Source: Rhodospirillales bacterium (GTDB lineage Bacteria > Pseudomonadota > Alphaproteobacteria > Bin95). Taken from it: DNA of 64,000 bases. Location: positions 1,760,894 to 1,824,893 of the forward strand of contig JAYQLI010000035.1 of the NCBI GenBank assembly GCA_038143065.1. The letters run 5' to 3'. The position numbers and the translations under genes are program-made. The notes under the pieces are model-generated. The model had not been told where the DNA came from. It searched no databases and was given only the letters and a program-made list of their open reading frames with translations. Below are positions 12,383 through 25,432 of the stretch, in pieces. Position 1 is the stretch's first letter. Each line of letters begins with the position of its first letter.

Positions 12383-13167
12383 TTGGAAGCCTTTGAAATT
12401 GGCCTTCTTGCCATAGCAGCTTTTTCGACCTCGGCACTGACTGCAGTTGTTGGTGCTGGGGGCGGTACAGCACTCATTGCTTTGATGCTATTGATCATGC
12501 CTCCTGCCGCCGTGATCCCAGCGCACGGCGTCGTTCAACTGGCAGCAAATGTAACGCGTTCCTGGCTTTGCGCAGATATCTGGCCTGGCCAATCATTTGG
12601 CGCTTTTCCCTTCTTTTACCGCTTGGCGTTGTTCTTGGGTTGTGGTTTTTTCAAGGTTTACCAGCAGCAGTTATCCAGCTTTTGATTGGCGGCTTCGTTC
12701 TTATCACTCTTGCGCTCCCTACATCAAACAAATCGGCATTAGAGAAACGCCACTCTGGGCTTTTATTCCAGTCGGATTCGTAACAGGTTGCTTAAATATG
12801 ATTGTTGGTGTGATAGCGCCTATTCTCGGAGCTATCATTGTTCGGCGAGATCTAAAAAAAGAGGAGATAGTAGGCACTCTGGGATTTTTTGGAGTTATAG
12901 GTAATCTCTTCAAAATAATCTGGATTTACGTTCGTTGGTTTTAGTTTTGCAAAATATTGGCCTTTACTGGCAGTGATGGTTCCTGCCGCCGTAGTAGGTG
13001 CGCGCGTCGGGCGCTTGTTGCTCTCGATGGTAGACGAGCGTTTATTTCTAATTTGTTTCCGTCTTATGTTGGGTATGCTTGCACTCAAGCTCATCATAGT
13101 GGACGGCTTGAGTGCATTTTTGTTGACTTCAATCGGATTGCCTCAGGCATTTGATATCCTGGCGTAG
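12383..13167 (+). CDS. Sulfite exporter TauE/SafE family (frameshifted)
   Basis: VVGAGGG, PAHGVVQL; successive hydrophobic fragments in changing frames. Confidence 0.75.
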
Positions 13168-14217
13168 ATTTAGAAAGCGCCACTTCATCTTGTCCATATC
13201 TTCTGGCACGCCCTCGAACATAGGCGATGACAAATACCTTTCTCCTGTATCAGGCAACATACAGAGGATTGTCGATCCCTTTGGTGCCTTCTCTGCAACT
13301 GCAATCGCAGTCGCAAAGCTAGAACCACCTGAAATACCAGTAAAGATGCCTTCCTGCTGCGCCAATTTCTTGGACCAGGATATACCATCTGCTCCCGCAA
13401 CGGGCAGAAGTTCGTCGTACAGATTGTTGTCAATTGCTTCCTGCAAAACATAAGGAATGAAGTCAGGAGTCCAACCCTGGATTGGATGAGCCTCCCAGTC
13501 GGGGTGGCTAGATGCTGGTGAATTATCTGCAGTTCTATCCTGAACCTTGCCACCACCTAAAAGTTGAGCATTAGCAGGTTCGGTTAAATAATTTTCGTAT
13601 TAGGCATTTCCTTACGGAGGATCTTGCAACCCTGTAACTGTTCCACCGGTTCCATATCCAGAGACGAAATAGTCAAGCTTTTTGCCTGCAAAATCCGCAA
13701 CTATTTCGCGCCCGGTGGTGTTCTCATGGATCTTAGCGTTGTCGGCTGTCTCAAACTGGCGCGCAAGGAACCACCCATTTGCCTTTGCGAGTTCAACTGC
13801 CTTGTTGTACATGCCCGAACCCTTCTGGGCACGAGGGTCAAAACAACCTTAGCGCCAAGAAACCTCATGAGTTTGCGCCGTTCAATAGAAAAGCTGTCAG
13901 CCATTGTCACGAACAAGTGGATACCCTTTGGCCGCACAGACCATAGCCAGCCCAATCCCTGTGTTACCGCTGGTTGCCTCAACTACAGTCTGACCGGGTT
14001 TTAGGTCTCCCGTTTCTCTGCTTCCTCAATAATACTTGTAGCAAGACGATCCTTTGACAGATCCCGCAGGGTTAAAGAATTCAGCTTTTACGTACAAGTT
14101 AATGCCTTCAGGGGCGATTTTGTTAATACGTACGCAAGGAGTGTCACCCATCGTATCCACTATTGAGTCGAAAACTCGTCCTTGACCATTAGTAGTGCGG
14201 CTATTGCTATCTGACAT
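13129..14217 (-). CDS. cysK: Cysteine synthase A (several frameshifts)
   Basis: [16 protein letters not shown](DR), [31 protein letters not shown] across fragments. Confidence 0.85.
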
Positions 14218-14350
14218 TAACGTCTCTCCCTTTTATAACGTATTCTATGGCAACCCTAAAAAGTACTGTACACGTGATAATCAGCGTTTCCAAAGAAGAC
14301 ATCAAAACAAAAATCATTCATTCTTTTCATCGTGAAGGATCAGTCATCAT

Positions 14351-15180
14351 ATGAGCGTCTCAAGTTTCTCAGACAAAAGTCTCCTGACTGATGTTGAGGA
14401 GCTTTCAAACTGTCTTGATAGCGTGACTTTGCTAGATCTTCGACCAACAGATGATTACGCTTTAGGTCATATTCCAGGTGCTAGACACATAGGTATCTAT
14501 GACATTAGCCGTAATGACACCTCCGAGGCACCATTAGAGGCCTTTCTTTCTATTTTTAATGTTCTTTTCGGCTCGCGTGGCGTTCAAGCTGGAAAAGCCA
14601 ATAGTTGTATACGACCATGAAAGCGGGGAGCGAGCGGCTCGAGCAGTTTGGTTGCTTTCGGTTTTAGGGTCATTCAAATGTTAGATTGTTGACGGTGGCA
14701 GTAGTGCCTGGAGACGTTCAGGACGCAGTTTAGTCAGTGTGGGATTTGCGGATGCGCCGATAGCGCCAGATAAGGCCCCACCTTTCGCGATTAGAACTGC
14801 TTGCAACCCGCTTTGACGTCCACGAGGCAATTAAGCGTGACGATATGATCATCCTTGATGTTCGTCGTGAAAGTGAAAATAGAGGAACAGAAAAGCGGGC
14901 CCGACGTGCCGGCGCAATCCCTGGATCTGTTCACATCTTTTGGCGTGATCATTTAGACGCCGATGGCAAAATTCGACCTGTCGATGAGATCCGTTCCCTC
15001 TACGAAGCAAATGGCGTCACGCCCGATAAATCAATTATTGCATTCTGTCAGGGCGGCTATAGGTAAGCCAACACATTTATAATTCTCAAATCGTTAGGAT
15101 TTCAGAACGAGCGAAACTATGTTGGCTCTTAGGGTGAGTGTGGAAATAGCGACGATTCCATCATCGTAAAGCCAGAATAA
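14351..15180 (+). pseudogene. Tandem-rhodanese sulfurtransferase, disrupted
   Basis: GHIPGA, GAIPGS, active-site FCQGGYR followed by in-frame TAA; YVGS*GECGN where the family has GSWxEW; also indels. Confidence 0.7.
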
Positions 15181-15183
15181 TCA

Positions 15184-16188
15184 TCATTCTGGACGTTCAA
15201 TCCGACCATTTGGCAATCGAGCAAAGCGACCCTCCCAATGGATGCACTGGATCTTGCTGGGGCCACGGCCATCCTCCAAAAGCTGTTTGTCGATAGTCTG
15301 CAAAAGCAGCAGAAAGCTCATCCCGACTATTCATTACAAAAGGTCCATGTTGAGCGACAGGTTCTCCAATAGGCATTCCTTGCAGCATGAGTAGTTCAGA
15401 TGACTGACCACCTTTTTCAATATAGGGAATGACCCGCATTTACTTGGGCAACATTTAACATCGACTTGTTGACCATCAAAGGAGATGGGTCCACCGGAAA
15501 AGAGATAAAGGCAACGTCCAACATCGGCGTTCGTTGCAGGCAATGTCCACTCAGCCCCAGGGTCTAATTTTATTGTCCAAATCGCAACATTATGAGCTGG
15601 ATTGGGCCCATGAACTTGGAGGTGGCGCTGGAGGCTCCTGACCATCTGGCAACGCGCCAGCGTAGCTTACAAGCTTTACCCCATCAGAAGACAACATGCT
15701 TGGGATTTTATTCTTCCAGAACATACTGAAGTGCGGCTGAGCCATTTTAGAAACAGCCGGCAAATTCAGCCAAATCTGAAAAAGTTCGGTTGGGTTGCGG
15801 GTGTCCTGGCTTAAAAGTGGAAACATTTCAGAGTGAACGACGCCCTTACCAGCTGTCATCCACTGCAAATCACCTTCCCCAAAACGCGCAGCGGCGCCCA
15901 AACTATCACAGTGATCAATATACCCTTGGCGCGCGACGGTGACAGTTTCAAAGCCTCGGTGTGGGTGCTGAGGAAAGCCAGGAACTGTACTCACCGTGAT
16001 ACATACTCCAACCATCTTTACCGCCAAAATCATGCCCGATGGACCGCCCTTCGAGGCTTGCCTTTGGGCGCATCTCTCCATCGCCTTCAGGGATAGTTAT
16101 CATCGTGGTGCACACAGAAGAGAAAAGGGTCGAGGGTTGGCCAAGGACCCTCGGGCAATGGAGCAACTGCTAAAATGGTCTCTGACAT
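15184..16188 (-). CDS. Pirin family protein (frameshifted)
   Basis: [43 protein letters not shown]. Confidence 0.85.
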
Positions 16189-16255
16189 CGACACACCTAT
16201 TTTGATCAAATCTTGACTTTAAATAGCTCGCCAAGAGAAGTTGGACCAATATAAA

Positions 16256-16583
16256 TTAAGGATGTGGCCCCCAAGGCGCAGCATGTAGCAGTTTTACTTC
16301 CTGGTTCATGACTAGAGGACGGAAGCGAGCTGCAAAGTCCTCAACAAAAGCCTTGTTCGAAAAGACAGAGGCCCAGTGTGCTCGACGATCTGCATCATCT
16401 TCAAACTTCCAAAGATGGACTATTTGATTGATAGTTCCTGTGTCTCCTTGAAAATATCCAACTAACTTATCATCGTGACCACCGGATTGCAGCGCTGGAA
16501 ATCCATATTTTTTGATAAAGGTCGACTGCCTCGCCCATTTTTCCAACATAAAGCGTGTAAGTTCTAAGTTCGTAAAGAGCCAT
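16256..16583 (-). CDS. NIPSNAP family protein (one frameshift in an A-run near 16510)
   Basis: MALYELRTYTLYVGKM joined to NQIVHLWKFEDDADRRAHW. Confidence 0.85.
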
Positions 16584-16605
16584 ATCAAACAACCTTTCAG
16601 CATTT

Positions 16606-17408
16606 TTAAATTTTCAGCTGGCCAGTCCAGCCACCATCAATTGGTAAAACTGCACCCGTGATATCATCGCCAATAGAGCTGCAGAGAAAGGCTACCATGG
16701 CTGCAACATTTTGCATGGCAACAAATCTTCCAGTCGGATGGCGCTCAGAAATATATTTCTTCTCGACATCAGCAAGCGTGGCCCCCTGGACCGCGGCCAT
16801 ACTTTGCAACTTGGTCATAATAGCCGGCGTTGGAACTGAACCAGGGGAAAGAGCATTAGCTGTCACGCCTGAAGCAGCCGTCTCAACCGCAATCCCTCTT
16901 GTAAGCCCGATAAGAGCCGTTTTAGTAGTTACATAGTCAATGCGTTCAGACGCTCCCCTCCAACCAAAGACAGAAGACATATTTATGATACGTCCCCAAC
17001 CCCTGGCCTTCATATCTGATAAAACTCAGGCGGACAGCATGAAAGGCTGCTGATAAGATTAACAGCTATGGATTGGTCCCATGCTTCTGGCTGCAAATCC
17101 TCAATTGCCGAAAAATTTCGAACAACAGCATTATTAACAAGAATATCAATGGACCCAAAGCAACTAATGCCATTGTCGACCATACGCTCAATCTGTCGAA
17201 GATCACTTAAATTCCGGGATCAAAAATTGCATCGACATTATTCCGAAGAATTTTTTCTGCCGCTTTGATGCCCTCTTCTGCCGACTTCCAGTCCATTCAA
17301 AACAATGTTCGCGCCTACAGCAGCGAGGCTTGCCGCAATTGCATTTCCAAGGCCTCCAACAGAGCCAGTTACTAGAGCCGTGCGACCATCAAGATATCTA
17401 TTGGACAT
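16606..17408 (-). CDS. Short-chain dehydrogenase (3-hydroxybutyrate dehydrogenase-like; frameshifted)
   Basis: ALVTGSVGGLG, NNA motif, YVTTK, IDGGW; ATG overlaps the upstream TGA. Confidence 0.8.
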
Positions 17409-18766
17409 CATGGATCCCCAGCAGCTGCCAACCGAGCAATGGTGCCTGCATCTTCCAGCGTATCAAGCATCCAAACCGCCTCGATTAGCCTATCAACATT
17501 TCCGTTAAAGCCTGCTCGCTCAGATAATTCCCAAACCTTGTTCTCAATGTCTTCATCAGAAAATGGATTTTTTGCCCCACCGCGCGCAGCATCAATACGC
17601 ACATGAATTGGTGATTGATCCTCAAGTTCGACCGTCATGTCTACTGAACCTATATCGTAAGTGTCGTCGTCAATAAATGTGATTTTGGGACGTCCCGCGG
17701 CCAGCGTTTGTTGCGCTGCAGTATCATTAAACTCATCCAAACCAGCCTGGCCTCGTTGAAAGGCTATAGAAACCGCATGCTGCGCTGAAACCTGCGCCTC
17801 CCGGCCTGTTGCAACATAAGGTCGATCTGTACGTTGGCGGAGCAAAGAATGGCCTTTAAGTGTTACAGATTTTACAATGCTGGTCTCAAAGCCTTGCCTT
17901 GATTCAATCTCTAAACTTGCGTCGATGACAGGGTTTTCAAAACCACACCAGCTGGGATAAGGCTTATAAGTATTTTTACTAATTTCCCAGATATCTCCCC
18001 AGATCTGCCGTTAAGCGATTAAGGTTAGGATTGTCGCAGTAAACTCTCAGAAATCCTCGTTGACCTGTCAGTGGTGCTGAAGGCCCATCAAAATTAGCCT
18101 TTGCAAGCAGTGCTGACATCATTCCCAAGACGCGCAGCATTTCCCACACTCAAACTTTTTGCCATGTAGCCAAGGCCTTCGACTAATCCAGCTGACTGAA
18201 CAGCCGCGTTTCCAGCTGCGTAAACAAATTGATTACGTGTTAATTTTAAAAGTGCACCTACTCCAAAGGCTGCGCCAAAAATCCCGCATGTGGATGTAAT
18301 GTGCCACCCTCGCGCATAATGATAAGGTGAGATAGCGTTGCCTAATCTGCATTCAATTTCTCCTCTAGAATAAAGGCGCGGATCAATTCATTTCCAGACA
18401 AACGGTTAGCCTCTGCTTGAGCCAAAATCGCGGGCACCAAGGGTGCCGATGGATGAATTATGGTAGCAGGATGATTATCGTCATAATCAAAAATATTAGC
18501 GGACATGCCGTTAATAAACGACGCGAGTTGTGGATCAGTGCGCTCTGGGCGTCCAATAAGACTGCAGGAAGCATTGCACCTGAATAAGGCCCATGACACT
18601 CAATGGCCTTATCAACTGCAGGCTCCTCACATCCAGAAATTGCTGTTCCGATAATATTAAGATTGAGCGCTTTGACTTCATGACAGATGGTTGCTGGTAA
18701 TGTCAGACCAATTCAACCGGTTTGAGCAAATCAGCTAATTTTTTTCCAGAAGGAGTTAATCATCAT
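17408..18766 (-). CDS. MmgE/PrpD family protein (many frameshifts)
   Basis: FINGMSANIFDYDDNH..TIIHPSAP, GWHITSTCG, KPYP.G, AQVSAQH. Confidence 0.8.
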
Positions 18767-18971
18767 CCGATCCAATCAAAAAAAATCATTCACTCAAATT
18801 TCAAATGGATTTTTACTTAAATTGTTATCTTTATTAATTTAACCCAAATATCATAATTGGTATTTAATTTTTTGATGCATTCTTGGCAAATCCAAAAACT
18901 TCAATAATTTTAAAATCTTCAGAAGAATTTGTTTACCCCTTGCAACCGAATTCAAACGTTTTTAAATGATT

Positions 18972-21900
18972 TTATAGTCCCCCTGTTACCTCTGAGGAAC
19001 TATCAAAATGAGTGATTTCATTGACCACATCTACAGACCCAGATGATGCATCAATTGTCACAGCAACGCCACGTATTTCCAAGTCCCTCAGTTGGGGGGA
19101 CAACTGCTTAATCAGGGTTCCATTAATGATTTTAAATCCTCCATTTGCAGCCCTCTGCAAAGTGCCACCTTGATTGATTTTGAAGAATGATATCGTCTTC
19201 GGTTATCTACGAAGGATGTTGATTGCTTATGTTTTCTCCTGTAAAATTAAACAGGCTTGCAGTGTATTGATTAAAGCCCCGAATTGAATGCTCCAATTCT
19301 TTGCTCAGAATCAGTTTTACAAGAACCGGTGCAATCATTCTCTAATCGTCACATCAACTGCCAAGTCATTCACTAAAAACACGTGGAATGTCCCACCGCC
19401 TGAGCCATCAGGGCCATTGAGGTGTGCATCCAAATCAACCAAGCTTGATCTGGACCAATCAAATTCAATAAATGTTGCGCAAAGTCACGTCGATGACTTA
19501 ACTGCCTCGTGGACAGCTTGTGTCGCGCTGTCCAATTCAACTGTATTTTACTAATTCATTATCAATTTCGAGCTCTGAAAATTGAAGTTCTTTGATCAAA
19601 CGTGTTACTTGCCTAACGTCCAACATCTGGTTGATGGATTTAATTTGAGCCGTGGCAGGATCGATTTTTGCTGCCAACCATGTGTTTCCAGAGCCATTTT
19701 GAGGAGGATTAAAGCGGTCAACCGTCGTTCCACCAGATACCTCTGATCCGCCCGCAGATGTGCGCTGCAGCGTTCCGCCTTGTATTGAAGTTGATGGATA
19801 TATTGTTTGATTGTCAACGATAGCAGTTTGGAACCATTCGCCCCAGCATGATATTCCGACACCATACAGGCCGGATCCAGAATTTAAACTACTGATTGAA
19901 ATACCTCACTACAATTAGCATTGCATCGCAATCCCTTGGTCGAGATTAATTTCGGGATGTATTGGGAATTTTGTGATGATGCAGAGATTAAAAATGGTTG
20001 AGAGTTTGTATCTTCACCAAACAAAAACCCGTCTAAGTCTATCAAACTGCTATTTTTCCAATCAAATTCAACATGAAGGCCAAGAGAAATATCGTTAATC
20101 GTTGCTGTTTTGAATATTGAATTTCAGTTTCAACGAGTTGCAATTTAGATAACTCAGCAAATCCAGTGATTTGAATTATGTCATTTTCAACATCAACAAT
20201 CTGGTTGATGGATGTAATTTCACCAGTCACTGGATTTATTTCAGCTGCAATCCATGCATCGCCAACGCCCATCACTTGGAGGGGCAAATTCTCGAAGAGT
20301 CACCCCACCTGAAACTTCAGAACCACCGCGAGACGTCCGCTGTAAGGTCCCTCCTTGGTTAACCCTAAGAACAAATTTGAATTAGTTAGCGATATAACAT
20401 TCGGCCCATTATTATCTGGGTCCAGGTGCATTCCAACGCCATAGAGACCTGTATTTGGGAAGCTATCGATTATGATGACTTCACTGCATCTAGCGACAAT
20501 ACAGTTCGTATCCAGCCTTATAGTTGGATGAGAATTTGCAATCTCCTCATCACCAATAATCAGAAATGGGTTCGTTGTTGCTCGTGAATCCGTTCCAAAC
20601 AGGAATCCATCAACGTCGATTAAATTTGACGCTGTCCAATCAAACTCAATGAATGCGCCTGCGTTAATGTTAAGGTCCGTCCCGGAGAAGCGACTCACTG
20701 TATCCTCAACACTTTGAACATCATCATTGATGATTTGAGTTAAATTATCTACCGGCAAATCGTCATTTGGGCCAGTAACCCCTGGCCCAACAGCCCCAGG
20801 TGGTCCAAAGCCCAGCGGTATGGATATCGCGATATCAACACCTGGACCCGCAGCTTCCTCAACATTTATGGCTGCAAACACAGGCATCTCTGGGGCTGGT
20901 GCCGGGGCCAGAGCAGGGGCTGGTGCCGGGGCCAGAGCAGGGGCTGGTGCAGGGGCTGGTGCAGGGGCAACATCTGCACCCGCACCATTGTCAGGCCCAC
21001 CAGCTACTGGCGCTTCAGCAGGAGCTGCAGCAGCATCATTACCGGCACCACCTACAGGGCCTGTCTCTCCAGGCTCGTTATCACTTGCACTTGCCACGAC
21101 CGTGTTATCTGAACCTGCTGGCCCTTCAGACGCCCCATCGCCACCTTCATTTGTTGCAACAGGTCCATCACCACCTTCTGCCGGCGGGCCGCCTTCACCA
21201 TTAGCAGCTGTACTTTCGCCACCCTGACCACCTTCACCCTCTTGGTTCTGGGCAGTTTGCTCGCCACCTTCACCCTCTTGGTTCTGGGCAGTTTGCTCGC
21301 CACCTTCACCTTCTTCTTGGTTCTCGGCGGTTTGCTCGCCACCTTCACCTTCTTGGTTCTCAGCAGTTTCCTCGCCACCTTCACCTTCTTGGTTCTCGGC
21401 AGTTTCCTCGCCACCTTCACCTTCTTGGTTCTCGGCAGTTTCCTCGCCACCTTCACCTTCCTCTCGCCACCTTCACCTTCTTGGTTCTCGGCAGTTTCCT
21501 CGCCACCTTCACCTTCTTGGTTCTCAGCAGTTTCCTCGCCACCTTCACCTTCTTGGTTCTCGGCAGTTTCCTCGCCACCTTCACCTTCTTGGTTCTCGGT
21601 GGTTTCAGGTGACTTATTGACAAAGAGATTGGATATTTCAGCAGGAACGGGAATTAAATCTCCAGGAGGTTGGTTGACTTCACAAAAAAACCAACGCCAG
21701 CCTTATCTACCGTCTGAGACCCGTATTCATTCGCAAATTCAATTTTTGATGGCGGTAAACCCACATTGTTGTCTGGGCCTGGGCCTACTAACCCCATGAA
21801 AAATGACTGCCCCTGCTCTCTCTCCACAATAATTGTGGATGTACCCCTAATACCCATAACCCCAACAGGCGTTTTAATTTTGAACTGCGGCTTACCCAGA

Positions 21901-22268
21901 GCGGATGAACGACCAGACACAAAGCGAAGCGAGCCACGAACCATGTTCGCCACCATTTCTCCTGAACCTTTGTTGGGGTCATAAACAAATTTATCTATTG
22001 TTAAAGAACTGTTTGGCCCGAGGGTCAGGGCCGTTTCATCTACCAGCAAGGCCTGCATACGAGCGTTTGCACTGGTACTCAAAGTATCATTGGTGAGGAT
22101 TTCCCCACCAGACTTTATAATTTGTGGGCCAGGACGGTCGTTACCCTCAATCGTCGCCTTTCCCGTAACTCCAGCAGCAACCCCAGCCTGAACAGCAAAA
22201 GCATTGGCTCCAATTAAAGTACAGATAGCAAACAGAGTAATTGGGCCGGCGAGCCTTAAACTAAGCAT
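18972..22268 (-). CDS. Large exported FecR-domain protein with acidic tandem repeat and three YfaP/DUF2135-like domains (reconstructed across frameshifts, ~1100 aa)
   Basis: Signal peptide MLSLRL..ANAFA; FecR motifs DETALTLGPNS, GSLRFVSG, KTPVGVMGIRGT; EGEGGEETAENQ repeats; three EFDW..L[IV]D[LV]D motifs. Confidence 0.7.
20888..20985 (-). repeat. Ala-Pro coding repeat (APAPAPAL; 24-nt unit plus 12-nt subunits)
   Basis: ggggctggtgccggggccagagca x2 followed by ggggctggtgca x2. Confidence 0.85.
21229..21605 (-). repeat. 36-nt coding tandem repeat, ~10 units plus one 20-nt truncated unit
   Basis: ttggttct anchors at 21242, 21278, 21317, 21353, 21389, 21425, 21481, 21517, 21553, 21589. Confidence 0.95.
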
Positions 22269-22337
22269 CAGTTGCCTCGAGGATTGATCTTGTGATACCT
22301 GCATAAATACTGTGGTTTTTTGAGTGGAGCAACTTTA

Positions 22338-23684
22338 ATGCGTGCCAGATCACGCATACGCATAACCATTGCATCCTTTATTTTGATTGCGGCGGGACTC
22401 CTGCCGTCCCTATCGCTCGCCCAAAACTCCGAGCCAAGGATCACCTATGCGCAGATACTCGCTGACCCCGACAACATAGAATTATCAGTGAAGTATGCCC
22501 AACAACTCATAAATGGTGGTGAATTTCAGAAAGCTACAATTTCTTTAGAGCGCATATTGTTATTGAATCCGGAAGTGGACAAAGCTCGATTATTAATGGC
22601 TCTTGTATTTTTTCGTTTAGGAAGTTTTTCAGAAGCTGAAAGTGAACTGAACTTTCTTAAAACAAGAGAACTTTCTGATGAAGATGCTGTTGTAGTCGAA
22701 AAATACTTAGATTTAATTTATGAGAAAAGAAAATTATGGTCGGCTACGAGCTTATTTAGCTTGGGGATACACTACGATACAAACAAAAACAGCAATCCTT
22801 CATCGTCGCAAATAAGACCCATCGACTTAGCTTTTGACAACACAGGTGAAGATGAAGATGACGTTGGCCTTCTGTCTTTGATCGGCTTTGAATATAGAAC
22901 AAAATTAAATCCGGTTGATCCCATAGAAGTATCTTTCGGATCAGCTTTTATCTTTGATAACCAAGAAAAATTAAACAATGTCGACACAGTCGCCATTGCT
23001 CCAAAGGTTGGGGTCAAGACCATTTGGAGAACCTTTGACCTGTCGACTTCTATTGGACTAACAAATGTACGCGTCGACGATGTAGAGTTCATGAACATCT
23101 ACGACATCAAATTTGGTGGCTCCCGGGTCTTTGATTATTCGAACACACAATTCACTCTCTCTAACGAGGTATCTGTAGCTCTTGAAGATTTTCAAAATAC
23201 GGCCAGAACCACAACGGGTAACGAAAGTGATGGCTATAATCTTGGAGTAAAATCAGGTTTTGCTATCCCTTTGACCCCTGAACTTCAGTTTGACTCAACA
23301 ATAAAATTTTCCAGAAAAAATGCTGATGTAGATTTCAATAGTTTCACTCAGTTTGGCTACGCCTCTAACTTTACGGGACCTATAAATAACACAGCCATGG
23401 CAAGCTTAAGATTAAGCTTTGACTAAAAATTTTTCGACGACCCCGATCCGTTTGTTATAAGCACAGAAGAAAGATCCGATATTAGTTATGGTGCAGGTTT
23501 AAACATCTTGCTTAAAATGGATCAGATTTTAGAAGACTTAGGTTGGCCAAATCATAGTACGTTTTCATCAGGCTTGATTGGATCACTGGGAGCGACTTAC
23601 AAAAAAAACACTTCAAATATCGAGAATTTCCGATTTGAAAATGAGAGGCTACAGTTTTCATTAACCAAACAGATAGCCTTTTAA
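22338..23684 (+). CDS. TPR plus outer-membrane beta-barrel protein, Slam/DUF560 (type XI secretion)-like; in-frame TAA at 23424-23426
   Basis: Signal peptide, TPR (LERILLLNPE..ARL), GIHYDTN.N, and after the stop the same frame gives DPDP..RSD, NTSNIENF and terminal QIAF. Confidence 0.7.
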
Positions 23685-23839
23685 TTAGATTAGCGCACCA
23701 AAAGAAAAATCTTGATGTCAACGAGCACATTATTTGAGAGATGCTGAGATCCAATTTTGTTTAAAAAATTTGATAAGAGGTATTTTGAAATTTATTTGCA
23801 GCCAAGAAATGCAGCAGATCCCGTTTACTTCTAAAAAGA

Positions 23840-25432
23840 TTATGTGAACGTAAACCCTGAATATTTTTCCGCCTCGCACATACGCAGCTCCTCTCGATAA
23901 GCGTCGGCATCCGGATAGTTAAGTAATTGGCGCTTTTTTCCTGGAATATTTGCGCCCATGTACCAGGAATCCGTTTGGCCAAATAAGGTACTCTGCGCAA
24001 GCCCTGCTAAGCGTTCTGTCCATGATTCGGCTGCTTCTTGAGAGGAATCGAATGTTTGATGTCCTTGTCGCCTCATCCAATTCAGAAACCTTGTGGCCCA
24101 TTCGCCCTGAAATTCTGCACAGGTTGGGCCATTGCAGAACGCGGTTGCACTTTGGGGGCCATACAGCATCAAAAAATTTGGAAACCCTGGGATTGCCGTT
24201 CCCATGTGCGTATCAACACCATTAGACCAAGTCTGCGAGAGAGTTTGTCCTTCTGCTCCACGAATATCCATGTTGATTAACCCCCCAGTGTTAGCATCAA
24301 ATCCCGTCGCCAACACCAAAACGTCTAGATCAAACTGGGCAGCGGTAGTTTTAACGCCGGATGGCATAATAGTTTCAATGGGCGTTGAAGAGATGTCCAC
24401 GAGCTCAACATTTTTCTGATTAAAGCAGTCATAAAAGTTCTGCTCTAAAGCAGGCCGTTTGGTGCCAAATGGATATGGTGGCTCCATTGGCGCCAGCTTC
24501 TCCGCAACCTCTAAATTATCAATTCGGGATCTCGTTTTATCTCGCCAAAAATTGTAGGCCGCTCGGTTGGAAGCTTCATTAGTCAAAATGTCATTGAAAG
24601 TACCAATCCAGAAATTAAACCCTCCCTTTTCCCAAGCTGATTCAAAAACATTCAAGCGATCTACGTCGGAAACATCGAATGCCCCCTTATCAAGACGAAC
24701 GATGTCACAAAAATTTCCTGGGGGAGAGCTCCTAAGAGAAAACAATTCAGGGTAATTTTTCTTCGCTAATTCCTGCTCTGATACACTGAGTTTGCGCTGC
24801 TGCATTGGAAGAGCTGTCACAGGTGTTCTTTGGAACACCACCAATCTTTCAGCAATCGGGGCTGCCTCTTGTACTATCTGGACACCACTCGCTCCAGTTC
24901 CAATTATACCAACTTTTTGGCCTCCGAAATCTACCCCTTGCTGAGGCCAGTGAGCTGTGTGGTGGCAGATGCCTCTAAAATGATCCAGGCCAGTAATGTC
25001 TGGAGTATAAGATTTACTGCCAAAGCCAGTGCACATAATCAAAACCCTGGCATCATAAACACGGTCATTTTGGGCTTTTATTTGCCATCGCCCGTCTTGG
25101 CCAAAATGACATGCTTCAATTCGGGTCGAAAGATCCACATCCTTTCGCAAATCAAGTTTGTGAACCACATGTTCAAAATAAGCTACTAGTTCTTCATGCC
25201 CAGGGAACCGCTCAGTCCAGGACCAGTCCCGCCAGCAATCATCTAACGAGTATTCATAATTCGGGACGTGTGAATCTACTCTTGCTCCAGGGTAACGATT
25301 AGCCTGCCAGCCCCCACCAAATCCATCTTGCGCTTCCACCAAACGCACTGAAAATCCTTCGCCTCTAAGACGGTACAAAAGGTAAAGCCCACTAAAACCC
25401 GCGCCAACAATTACAATATCGAATTTTCTCAT
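23840..25432 (-). CDS. Type I Baeyer-Villiger monooxygenase
   Basis: GAGFSG, FRGICHHTAHWP fingerprint, GTGASG, ATGF, SWYMGANIPGK. Confidence 0.92.
   Translation of the reverse strand: MRKFDIVIVGAGFSGLYLLYRLRGEGFSVRLVEAQDGFGGGWQANRYPGARVDSHVPNYEYSLDDCWRDWSWTERFPGHEELVAYFEHVVHKLDLRKDVDLSTRIEACHFGQDGRWQIKAQNDRVYDARVLIMCTGFGSKSYTPDITGLDHFRGICHHTAHWPQQGVDFGGQKVGIIGTGASGVQIVQEAAPIAERLVVFQRTPVTALPMQQRKLSVSEQELAKKNYPELFSLRSSPPGNFCDIVRLDKGAFDVSDVDRLNVFESAWEKGGFNFWIGTFNDILTNEASNRAAYNFWRDKTRSRIDNLEVAEKLAPMEPPYPFGTKRPALEQNFYDCFNQKNVELVDISSTPIETIMPSGVKTTAAQFDLDVLVLATGFDANTGGLINMDIRGAEGQTLSQTWSNGVDTHMGTAIPGFPNFLMLYGPQSATAFCNGPTCAEFQGEWATRFLNWMRRQGHQTFDSSQEAAESWTERLAGLAQSTLFGQTDSWYMGANIPGKKRQLLNYPDADAYREELRMCEAEKYSGFTFT

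Follow-up and report, generated by a model that had tools for sequence, protein, structure and literature searches.

The 64,000-nucleotide stretch of DNA analysed here (the window; positions 1,760,894 to 1,824,893 of contig JAYQLI010000035.1 in the Rhodospirillales assembly GCA_038143065.1) carries, at positions 18972-23684, two divergent genes, one for a predicted outer-membrane beta-barrel protein and the other for a large exported protein that opens with a FecR-type domain (the FecR head). By a modest balance of probability, sequence comparison favours the reading that the two genes form one conserved envelope module, a display or tether pair similar to type 11 secretion systems (T11SSs). 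The pair is a real, conserved variant of the type 11 secretion theme and is apparently undescribed; the copy in the window is a variant without CHASE2 and with an expanded C-terminal domain. Type 11 systems of the Slam kind combine PF04575 (DUF560/SlipAM) with PF24575 (TPR_Slam), as in Slam1/2 of Neisseria and NilB/HrpB of Xenorhabdus, and the Slam barrel has 14 strands.

The barrel gene runs from an ATG at 22338 to a TAA at 23682-23684 on the forward strand, and its features, together with the region upstream of it, were assigned as follows.

22338..23684, forward strand: barrel gene, 448 codons plus stop, for a distant DUF560/Slam-family outer-membrane protein; interrupted in the assembly.
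22338..22421, forward strand: predicted Sec signal peptide, residues 1-28 (SLSLA, then QN), read from the translation.
22446..22730, forward strand: predicted periplasmic TPR-like helical region, residues 37-131, from helices in the model and weak TPR matches in Pfam.
22737..23681, forward strand: predicted beta-barrel of about 14 strands, residues 134-448, the last residue being Phe; from the strand list of the model, predicted local distance difference test (pLDDT) mostly 80-96.
23424-23426, forward strand: premature in-frame stop codon TAA at codon 363, inside model strand 353-366.
22269..22337, no strand: divergent intergenic region, 69 bp with the FecR start at 22268 and 33 bp with the start at 22304.

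An earlier note on this DNA, made from the letters alone, had described a barrel protein of about 449 codons with a signal peptide, TPR and a barrel-like C-terminus, starting about 70 bp from the divergent gene. The frame and all of the motifs named (HYDTNKN, DDPDPFV..EERSD, NTSNIENF and the terminal Phe) were found in the translation, but the full length is obtained only by reading through the TAA at codon 363, which, if real, would cost the modelled barrel its last three strands and the C-terminal Phe. The three-part architecture was borne out by the signal-like N-terminus (helix 2-20 followed by a low-confidence segment 22-31 in the AlphaFold2 model), by helices at 37-131 and by the roughly 14 strands that follow. 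The spacing holds for the FecR start at 22268 and falls to less than half of it for the alternative start. A scan of 22150-22450 for sigma-70-like promoters and terminators matched no site.

For family assignment, 15 close barrel orthologs were aligned by hhalign with 20 DUF560 proteins, these being Pfam-positive open reading frames (ORFs) from 37 positive genomes among the 301 sampled in the phylum. The alignment was obtained with 99.3% probability (E 2.3e-20, 369 columns) and spans query residues 44-446 and template residues 106-482 of 483, that is, from the TPR region through the last strand. Reciprocally, a hidden Markov model (HMM) of the barrel family matched 18 of the 20 bona fide DUF560 ORFs (best E 1.7e-18). 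These comparisons support homology of the barrel protein with DUF560/Slam across the TPR region and the whole barrel. The AlphaFold model, built from a 20-sequence alignment, reached a pLDDT of 82.5, with 14-15 strands at 134-447; its best Foldseek matches were the OmpG and CymA barrels (TMt 0.60-0.69), and further solved matches were the TPR-plus-barrel exporters PelB, BcsC and PgaA. No Slam entry was among the top Foldseek matches, and a PDB sequence search with the barrel-family profile gave eight matches at E up to 1, all unrelated TPR proteins (best 0.0043) and no Slam entry.

Intact barrel orthologs of 448-449 aa, 63-99% identical to the window protein, were found in marine and estuarine metagenomes, and remoter relatives at 25-27% identity include one with a precomputed PF04575 match. 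SlipAM was matched by 2 of 16 aligned members of the barrel family (best E 2.2e-10) and TPR_Slam (PF24575) by 4 of the 16. Among FecR-linked barrels, 54 of 70 were scanned, the others being either Thalassospira near-duplicates (10 loci: L061-L068, L077 and L043) or incomplete or fused ORFs (6: L048, L075, L079, L080 and both L085 copies); SlipAM was matched at E up to 0.01 in 18 of the 54, and the 22-bit cut-off was reached in 11. Pfam and NCBIfam scans of the window barrel itself yielded nothing beyond weak TPR matches such as the sub-threshold TPR_19 (E 2.7e-4, 21.6 bits against a cut-off of 25). A PF04575 search of the bacterium's own genome gave no match, but the controls matched in 0 of 14 genomes and the search is uninformative.

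Co-occurrence of the two genes was surveyed, a check that the earlier note had named, in one genome per species, which yielded 66 loci with barrel relatives at 23-29% identity from Thalassospira, Magnetospirillum, Marivibrio, Ferruginivarius and other Alphaproteobacteria and from metagenome-assembled genomes (MAGs) labelled Elusimicrobiota, Omnitrophota or Deltaproteobacteria. A FecR-head ORF, detected with a local head HMM, adjoins the barrel gene in 62 of the 66 loci, which is far more than chance, and in each of the four exceptions (L028, L048, L051 and L079) a contig end cuts one side. The control set of ordinary DUF560 loci had a head ORF in 0 of 20 (flanks of 1.5 kb only). The head gene may share the strand of the barrel gene, lying either downstream or upstream of it, or may be divergent (L036, L038, L041 and L049); it is divergent, as in the window, in all four metagenome loci that have an upstream flank, and at L019 and L021, whose ORFs were read, the contig stops within the acidic repeat while the head frame is still open. 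Three Magnetospirillum loci only (L087:8230-9933, L053 and L055) have a partner with a C-terminal TbpB_B_D / FHBP_C barrel (L087: E 3.2e-12), a match that, as read from sequence, links the FecR-head family to classical type 11 cargo.

A CHASE2 ORF is also present in 33 of the 66 loci, and Pfam identified CHASE2 together with Guanylate_cyc in the three that were checked. Because of this frequency, the window barrel is regarded as a CHASE2-less variant of a wider module and not as a lone oddity; the earlier note, which called the pair non-canonical, had missed the usual context of the family but was right that CHASE2 is absent locally. Its statement that no sigma factor, TonB receptor or CHASE2 gene is adjacent held for 19 ORF pieces of at least 80 aa between 12.3 and 26.2 kb, in which Pfam detected no extracytoplasmic function (ECF) sigma factor, TonB receptor, CHASE2, heme oxygenase or TbpB-like gene, and identified TauE, PALP, rhodanese, pirin, NIPSNAP, SDR, MmgE/PrpD, FMO and His_Phos_1 only. 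The two CHASE2 (PF05226) matches of the genome lie at C35:2.82 Mb and C35:1.07 Mb and the pair at C35:1.782-1.785 Mb; the matches are thus about 1.0 and 0.7 Mb away and neither is in the cluster of the pair.

Several further arrangements were seen among these loci. Two pairs of barrel and FecR-head genes stand back to back in L081, L084, L085 and L086 (for example, L086:743-8299), and one partner at such loci is large (910-1130 aa) with a C-terminal region that is not TerD/YfaP-like. Pfam-positive DUF560 genes directly precede a CHASE2 ORF at L108:2454-3839 and L110:2454-3839, with no FecR head in the short flanks, so that the link between DUF560 and CHASE2 may extend beyond the FecR-linked clade. 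The stop-to-stop frame with the barrel at L059:6419-8263 opens with a CsgG-like segment (PF03783, E 4e-14), which may reflect a gene fusion, or a gene upstream in that frame that escaped recognition. P0002, a protein with 99% identity to the barrel of the window, carries the label of a Flavobacteriaceae MAG, the other relatives being alphaproteobacterial or similar, and its contig is probably mis-binned.

The partner gene, on the reverse strand, begins 33 or 69 bp away from the start of the barrel gene (at 22304 or 22268) and stops at 18972-18974. Its features are listed below, with the C-terminal copies placed by mapping an intact ortholog, P0020, onto the window.

18972..22304, reverse strand: FecR-head partner gene, conceptually about 1100 codons, with 15 frame changes in the assembly.
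21600..22193, reverse strand: FecR-fold head, about residues 26-222 in ortholog numbering; holds the first frameshift, at about 21680-21690.
20700..21600 (approximate), reverse strand: low-complexity linker, acidic, Gly/Glu/Gln-rich and Ala/Pro-rich.
20177..20697 (approximate), reverse strand: C-terminal domain copy 1, TerD-fold and YfaP-like; P0020 residues 506-680.
19599..20145 (approximate), reverse strand: C-terminal domain copy 2; P0020 residues 702-883.
18975..19563 (approximate), reverse strand: C-terminal domain copy 3; P0020 residues 895-1088, fold from the model of P0024.

The description of this gene as encoding an exported FecR-domain protein of about 1100 aa was upheld by a PF04773 (FecR) match (E 2.9e-12, 47.3 bits against a cut-off of 24) and by a Sec-type signal, while the length is reached only after 15 frame corrections. 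The orthologs with unbroken frames are P0020 (1088 aa; head 92% identical), P0021 (888 aa; encoded on one 14.7-kb contig with the intact barrel ortholog P0004), P0022 (1130 aa) and P0023 (1011 aa), which share one layout: signal peptide, FecR head, acidic EGGE/ENQ repeats, an Ala/Pro-rich tract and 2-4 copies of a domain of about 180 aa. The signal ends in NAFA before VQAG, without Cys, in the window partner and the orthologs. Most partners have a signal end of the Ala-x-Ala type followed by a conserved AGV(A/S)AAV motif, and a lipobox-like motif was found in 1 of 70 partner ORFs, a set whose start sites were assigned roughly, several N-termini being plainly wrong. The linker of the window contains tandem repeats (36-nt units at 21228-21606 and a 12/24-nt repeat at 20892-20968) and is translated into EGEGGEETAENQ repeats and an APAPAP run. 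Both the number of 36-nt repeats and the number of C-terminal copies (2, 3 or 4) vary among the window and the close orthologs P0020-P0023. The linker is length-variable, and since metagenome contigs regularly end in its repeat, it also breaks assemblies.

Structure prediction was carried out on the ortholog P0024 (60-sequence alignment, pLDDT 81.4). Its head (residues 26-222) superposes on the periplasmic domains of FecR-type anti-sigma regulators, namely BDI_1681 (4m0h_A, Z 15.3) and PupR (6ovm_R, Z 15.2), its linker (226-307) is disordered in the model (pLDDT <50), and its C-terminal domain (306-472) superposes on the TerD homologues 2qz7_B (Z 13.1, root-mean-square deviation (rmsd) 3.0, 145 residues) and 2kxt (Z 11.1). 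Residues 28-125 of the head also match 5ix9, the cell-surface anchoring domain of MpIBP (Z 7.5, rmsd 2.2, 75/76 residues, 20% identity). LipL45 (27.6 bits, cut-off 350) and Lsa33 (25.5 bits, cut-off 420) also matched the partner, but these matches were rejected, as they reflect only the FecR domain in common.

For the C-terminal domain, hhalign against DUF2135-bearing domains from 10 loci gave 95.7% probability (E 1e-8, 74 columns) with the core W..DLDLH...D.D..G.(G)PE...G.Y, and the nearest named Atlas cluster was DUF2135 at 0.87, which is a lead only. Pfam scanning of the intact orthologs detected FecR only, with no TerD or DUF2135 match; PF09906 gave no match in P0020, P0022 and P0023 at E up to 1, and none in the bacterium's own genome at E up to 1e-5, the E. 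coli control being positive. The YfaP-like C-terminal repeats reported from the letters were thus recovered by profile-profile alignment but not by PF09906 itself. The domain of about 180 aa is present as a single C-terminal copy in the partners P0024, P0026, P0027 and P0028 (470-570 aa) and occurs also in the partners at L026, L038, L041 and L049. An iterated HMM of it stayed at 20 copies in 12 proteins or ORFs and left the C-terminal regions of the partners in Thalassospira and at most other loci without an assignment. Many proteins of between 156 and 875 aa (among P0143-P0281) likewise carry this TerD-fold YfaP-like domain at their very C-terminal end; 23 of the 29 tested had no Pfam FecR match, and 22 of these 23 had no match at all. 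The domain behaves like a mobile C-terminal module, and some of these proteins may be metagenomic fragments.

In the module favoured here, the barrel would be a Sec-exported outer-membrane protein that handles its neighbour at the outer membrane, and the neighbour would be a Sec-exported, non-lipidated protein consisting of a FecR head behind the signal peptide, an acidic disordered linker and three TerD-fold YfaP-like domains. We infer that the head would dock on the periplasmic side, at the TPR region or the barrel mouth, that the disordered linker would pass through the barrel, and that the C-terminal domains would be displayed, tethered, on the cell surface. Head docking and linker threading are favoured because the head, and not the C-terminus, is conserved in all partners and because the linker is always present and disordered. 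Many other lineages have the same pair wired to an inner-membrane CHASE2 cyclase, so that the likely role of the barrel-head family is that of a sensing or display arm at the outer membrane. A bolder proposal, put forward tentatively, is that FecR-head proteins are a new class of type 11 (Slam-like) clients recognised by the N-terminal head instead of a C-terminal barrel; the head would act as a periplasmic retention plug, with the linker running through the 14-strand barrel and interchangeable C-terminal modules outside; these modules are TerD/YfaP-like in the window, TbpB-like in Magnetospirillum and of other kinds elsewhere. If true, the tether would be, in the CHASE2-linked lineages, the long-sought outer-membrane input arm of CHASE2 signalling.

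Compared with Slam and the T11SSs, the window barrel has a signal peptide (read from the sequence) and, in the model, a periplasmic TPR region and a C-terminal barrel of about 14 strands; it shows profile homology over its whole length and its gene lies beside that of a Sec-exported protein, which in Magnetospirillum ends in a TbpB_B_D barrel. It differs in that the window protein falls below the Pfam threshold, its neighbour is not a lipoprotein and no TonB receptor is adjacent. A non-lipidated T11SS cargo, hemophilin, is known. The partner head has the same domain and periplasmic fold as the FecR/PupR-type regulators (PF04773; PDB 6ovk/6ovm and 4m0h; Z 15), whereas the partner lacks their cytoplasmic anti-sigma domain, membrane anchor and nearby ECF sigma factor or TonB transducer, and has a cleavable-looking signal peptide (head from about residue 26), a linker and TerD-fold domains. 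Known CHASE2 clusters with a FecR-domain protein resemble those loci in which the barrel-head pair stands beside a CHASE2 adenylate/guanylate cyclase, but no CHASE2 gene lies within about 0.7 Mb of the window pair. The C-terminal domains have the TerD fold and align with the DUF2135 profile, and differ from TerD and YfaP-DUF2135 (PF09906) proteins in lacking a Pfam match in the orthologs and, in the window, in being extracytoplasmic by prediction, C-terminal and of a kind repeated 2-4 times. The layout, in which a small beta domain at the N-terminus is joined by a flexible stretch to domains that would be at the surface, is also that of LapA and MpIBP, type 1 secreted adhesins; the structure 5ix9 was the template for the retention module of LapA, which is reported to plug an outer-membrane pore while a flexible segment threads through it. 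The route of the partner would be Sec and the barrel instead of type 1 secretion through a TolC-like pore, and the 5ix9 match is modest.

A number of observations weigh against a type 11-like module. PF04575 (SlipAM) gave no match at E up to 10 for the window barrel, neither for its pieces nor with the stop read through, and TPR_Slam remained below the Pfam threshold for the window barrel alone, so that the Slam/DUF560 assignment of the earlier note stands on the hhalign alignment, the reciprocal search and the fold and not on a direct hit; of the HMM checks that it named, FecR PF04773 matched directly, and DUF560 PF04575 and DUF2135 PF09906 did not. With its roughly 14 strands the barrel might just as well belong to a porin or a receptor. 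The conserved part of the neighbour is its N-terminal FecR head and not a C-terminal 8-strand barrel as in Slam cargo, its C-terminus having the TerD fold; as had been noted from the letters, the partner has no TbpB barrel, PF01298 finding no match in three intact orthologs at E up to 1, and phmmer found no similarity between the window-type C-terminal domain and the TbpB-like domain of Magnetospirillum L087. The Z of the 5ix9 match is within the VIA-align range in which mere common arrangements occur, and the 66 loci include many close kin (about 20 from Thalassospira), so that their counts overstate independence. The main rival reading is a periplasmic sensing pair without secretion, in which the head would bind the TPR region, the barrel would be an outer-membrane receptor or channel, and a surface signal would be passed inward to a receiver, the CHASE2 cyclase in other lineages, much as in FecA-FecR or in NsrA-CyaK of Sinorhizobium meliloti. 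We consider this arrangement rather unlikely. It agrees with the CHASE2 cyclase beside half of the pairs surveyed, with a head fold otherwise known from periplasmic signalling domains of anti-sigma regulators, and with NsrA, an outer-membrane barrel that is reported to be needed for input to the CHASE2 cyclases of S. meliloti; moreover, no common export signal is evident in the C-terminal domains of the partners, because conservation across the family does not extend to them. Against it, tested members of the family to which the barrel is homologous export their neighbours, the Magnetospirillum partners carry the canonical Slam-cargo barrel, and a long acidic linker with repeated C-terminal domains is more typical of surface proteins than of periplasmic adaptors. 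The window pair has no CHASE2 gene nearby, and NsrA differs in kind, being a much larger protein with its barrel at residues 600-1200.

A classical iron-type FecR anti-sigma regulator, standing beside a Slam that exports a hemophore or TbpB-like lipoprotein encoded elsewhere, is far less probable still. The PF04773 match would fit it, and FecR genes near type 11 hemophilin loci are reported to act as FecI/FecR regulators. In the window, however, the domain directly follows the signal peptide, and neither a cytoplasmic anti-sigma segment nor a membrane anchor precedes it; the protein goes on into the linker and three TerD-fold domains, and the pieces at 12.3-26.2 kb lack the ECF sigma factor, TonB receptor, heme oxygenase and TbpB-like genes that were looked for. 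The sequence and its context therefore support the view, already taken in the earlier note, that the partner is not a classical FecR anti-sigma factor.

The window copies of both genes are broken, and the breaks were compared with intact relatives and with public short-read contigs. Frameshift-aware alignment of the FecR gene with P0020 required 15 frame changes and revealed no in-frame stop, and after correction 748 of 1030 aligned codons (73%) were identical; the sense passes through at least 10 separate stop-to-stop ORFs. Every gene at 12397-22300 (about 10 kb) is split over frames in this way: TauE spans three frames, MmgE/PrpD falls into four pieces and rhodanese into two, PALP and an SDR are present as fragments, and pirin, NIPSNAP and FecR are affected as well. 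Elsewhere in the 64-kb window the ORFs are long and intact. At the first frameshift the window lacks 1 nt that three orthologous loci have, and the missing base at 21680, which restores the first frame, is present in Logan contigs of all four public runs (three studies). Over 21590-23900 one contig differs from the window by 8 mismatches and 1 gap (about 99.6% identical), and another covers 19622-20921 with 86 mismatches and 35 gaps; compared with the contigs, the window has extra letters at many positions where the alignment sets frameshifts, and parts of 18900-20600 are without contig cover in some runs. In the barrel, codon 363 is Tyr in two independent 99%-identical proteins, P0002 and P0284 (443/448 identical), and at three more positions these two proteins share a residue that the window lacks.

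The breaks are probably assembly errors because about 10 kb is uniformly fragmented and the short-read contigs contradict the indels that they cover. This is very probable for the frameshifts of the FecR gene and somewhat less so for the TAA of the barrel, and 12397-22300 looks like a poorly polished stretch of assembly. Two observations pull the other way: runs of at least three identical bases lie near 8 of the 15 frameshift sites, against 38% of random sites, and these sites, which are imprecisely placed, show no clear homopolymer link, and the TAA at 23424-23426 could be real in this strain. It is improbable that the pair is a decaying relic in this genome, with real TAA and frameshifts and neither protein made. 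The single nonsense codon and the 15 frame changes, the frameshift sites without a clear tie to homopolymers, and a truncated 362-aa product on record for the assembly (P0007) are what such a relic would give; another CHASE2 gene in the genome (G000:C35:1073884-1074558, L090) has an in-frame TAG, and this may be another broken gene or another stretch of low quality. Decay fits poorly with a 3.3-kb gene that has only indels, no stop and 73% identity after correction, with at least nine unrelated neighbouring genes broken alike beside an otherwise intact window, with the mending of the first frameshift by contigs of all four runs, and with near-identical intact barrel proteins. The window genes should accordingly be treated with caution, as they probably look broken only through the poor quality of about 10 kb of assembly.

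A search of the literature found no description of a Slam-like barrel paired with a FecR head. The main texts of two T11SS surveys (PMC8406197 and PMC12282271) mention neither FecR nor CHASE2, and their supplements may list such co-occurrences. In the available portions of the secretion preprints FecR appears near T11SSs only as the FecI/FecR iron regulator beside hemophilin loci, and the accessible parts of the literature on FecR with CHASE2 do not mention a Slam-like barrel.

To our knowledge, type 11 systems have been described almost exclusively in bacteria that live with hosts and export TbpB-like lipoproteins and hemophores, and we know of few inputs established for CHASE2 sensors. A widespread environmental branch that always occurs with a FecR-head protein, and often with CHASE2 cyclases, would widen what the type 11 family handles and would give a concrete, testable idea of how CHASE2 sensors connect to the cell surface.

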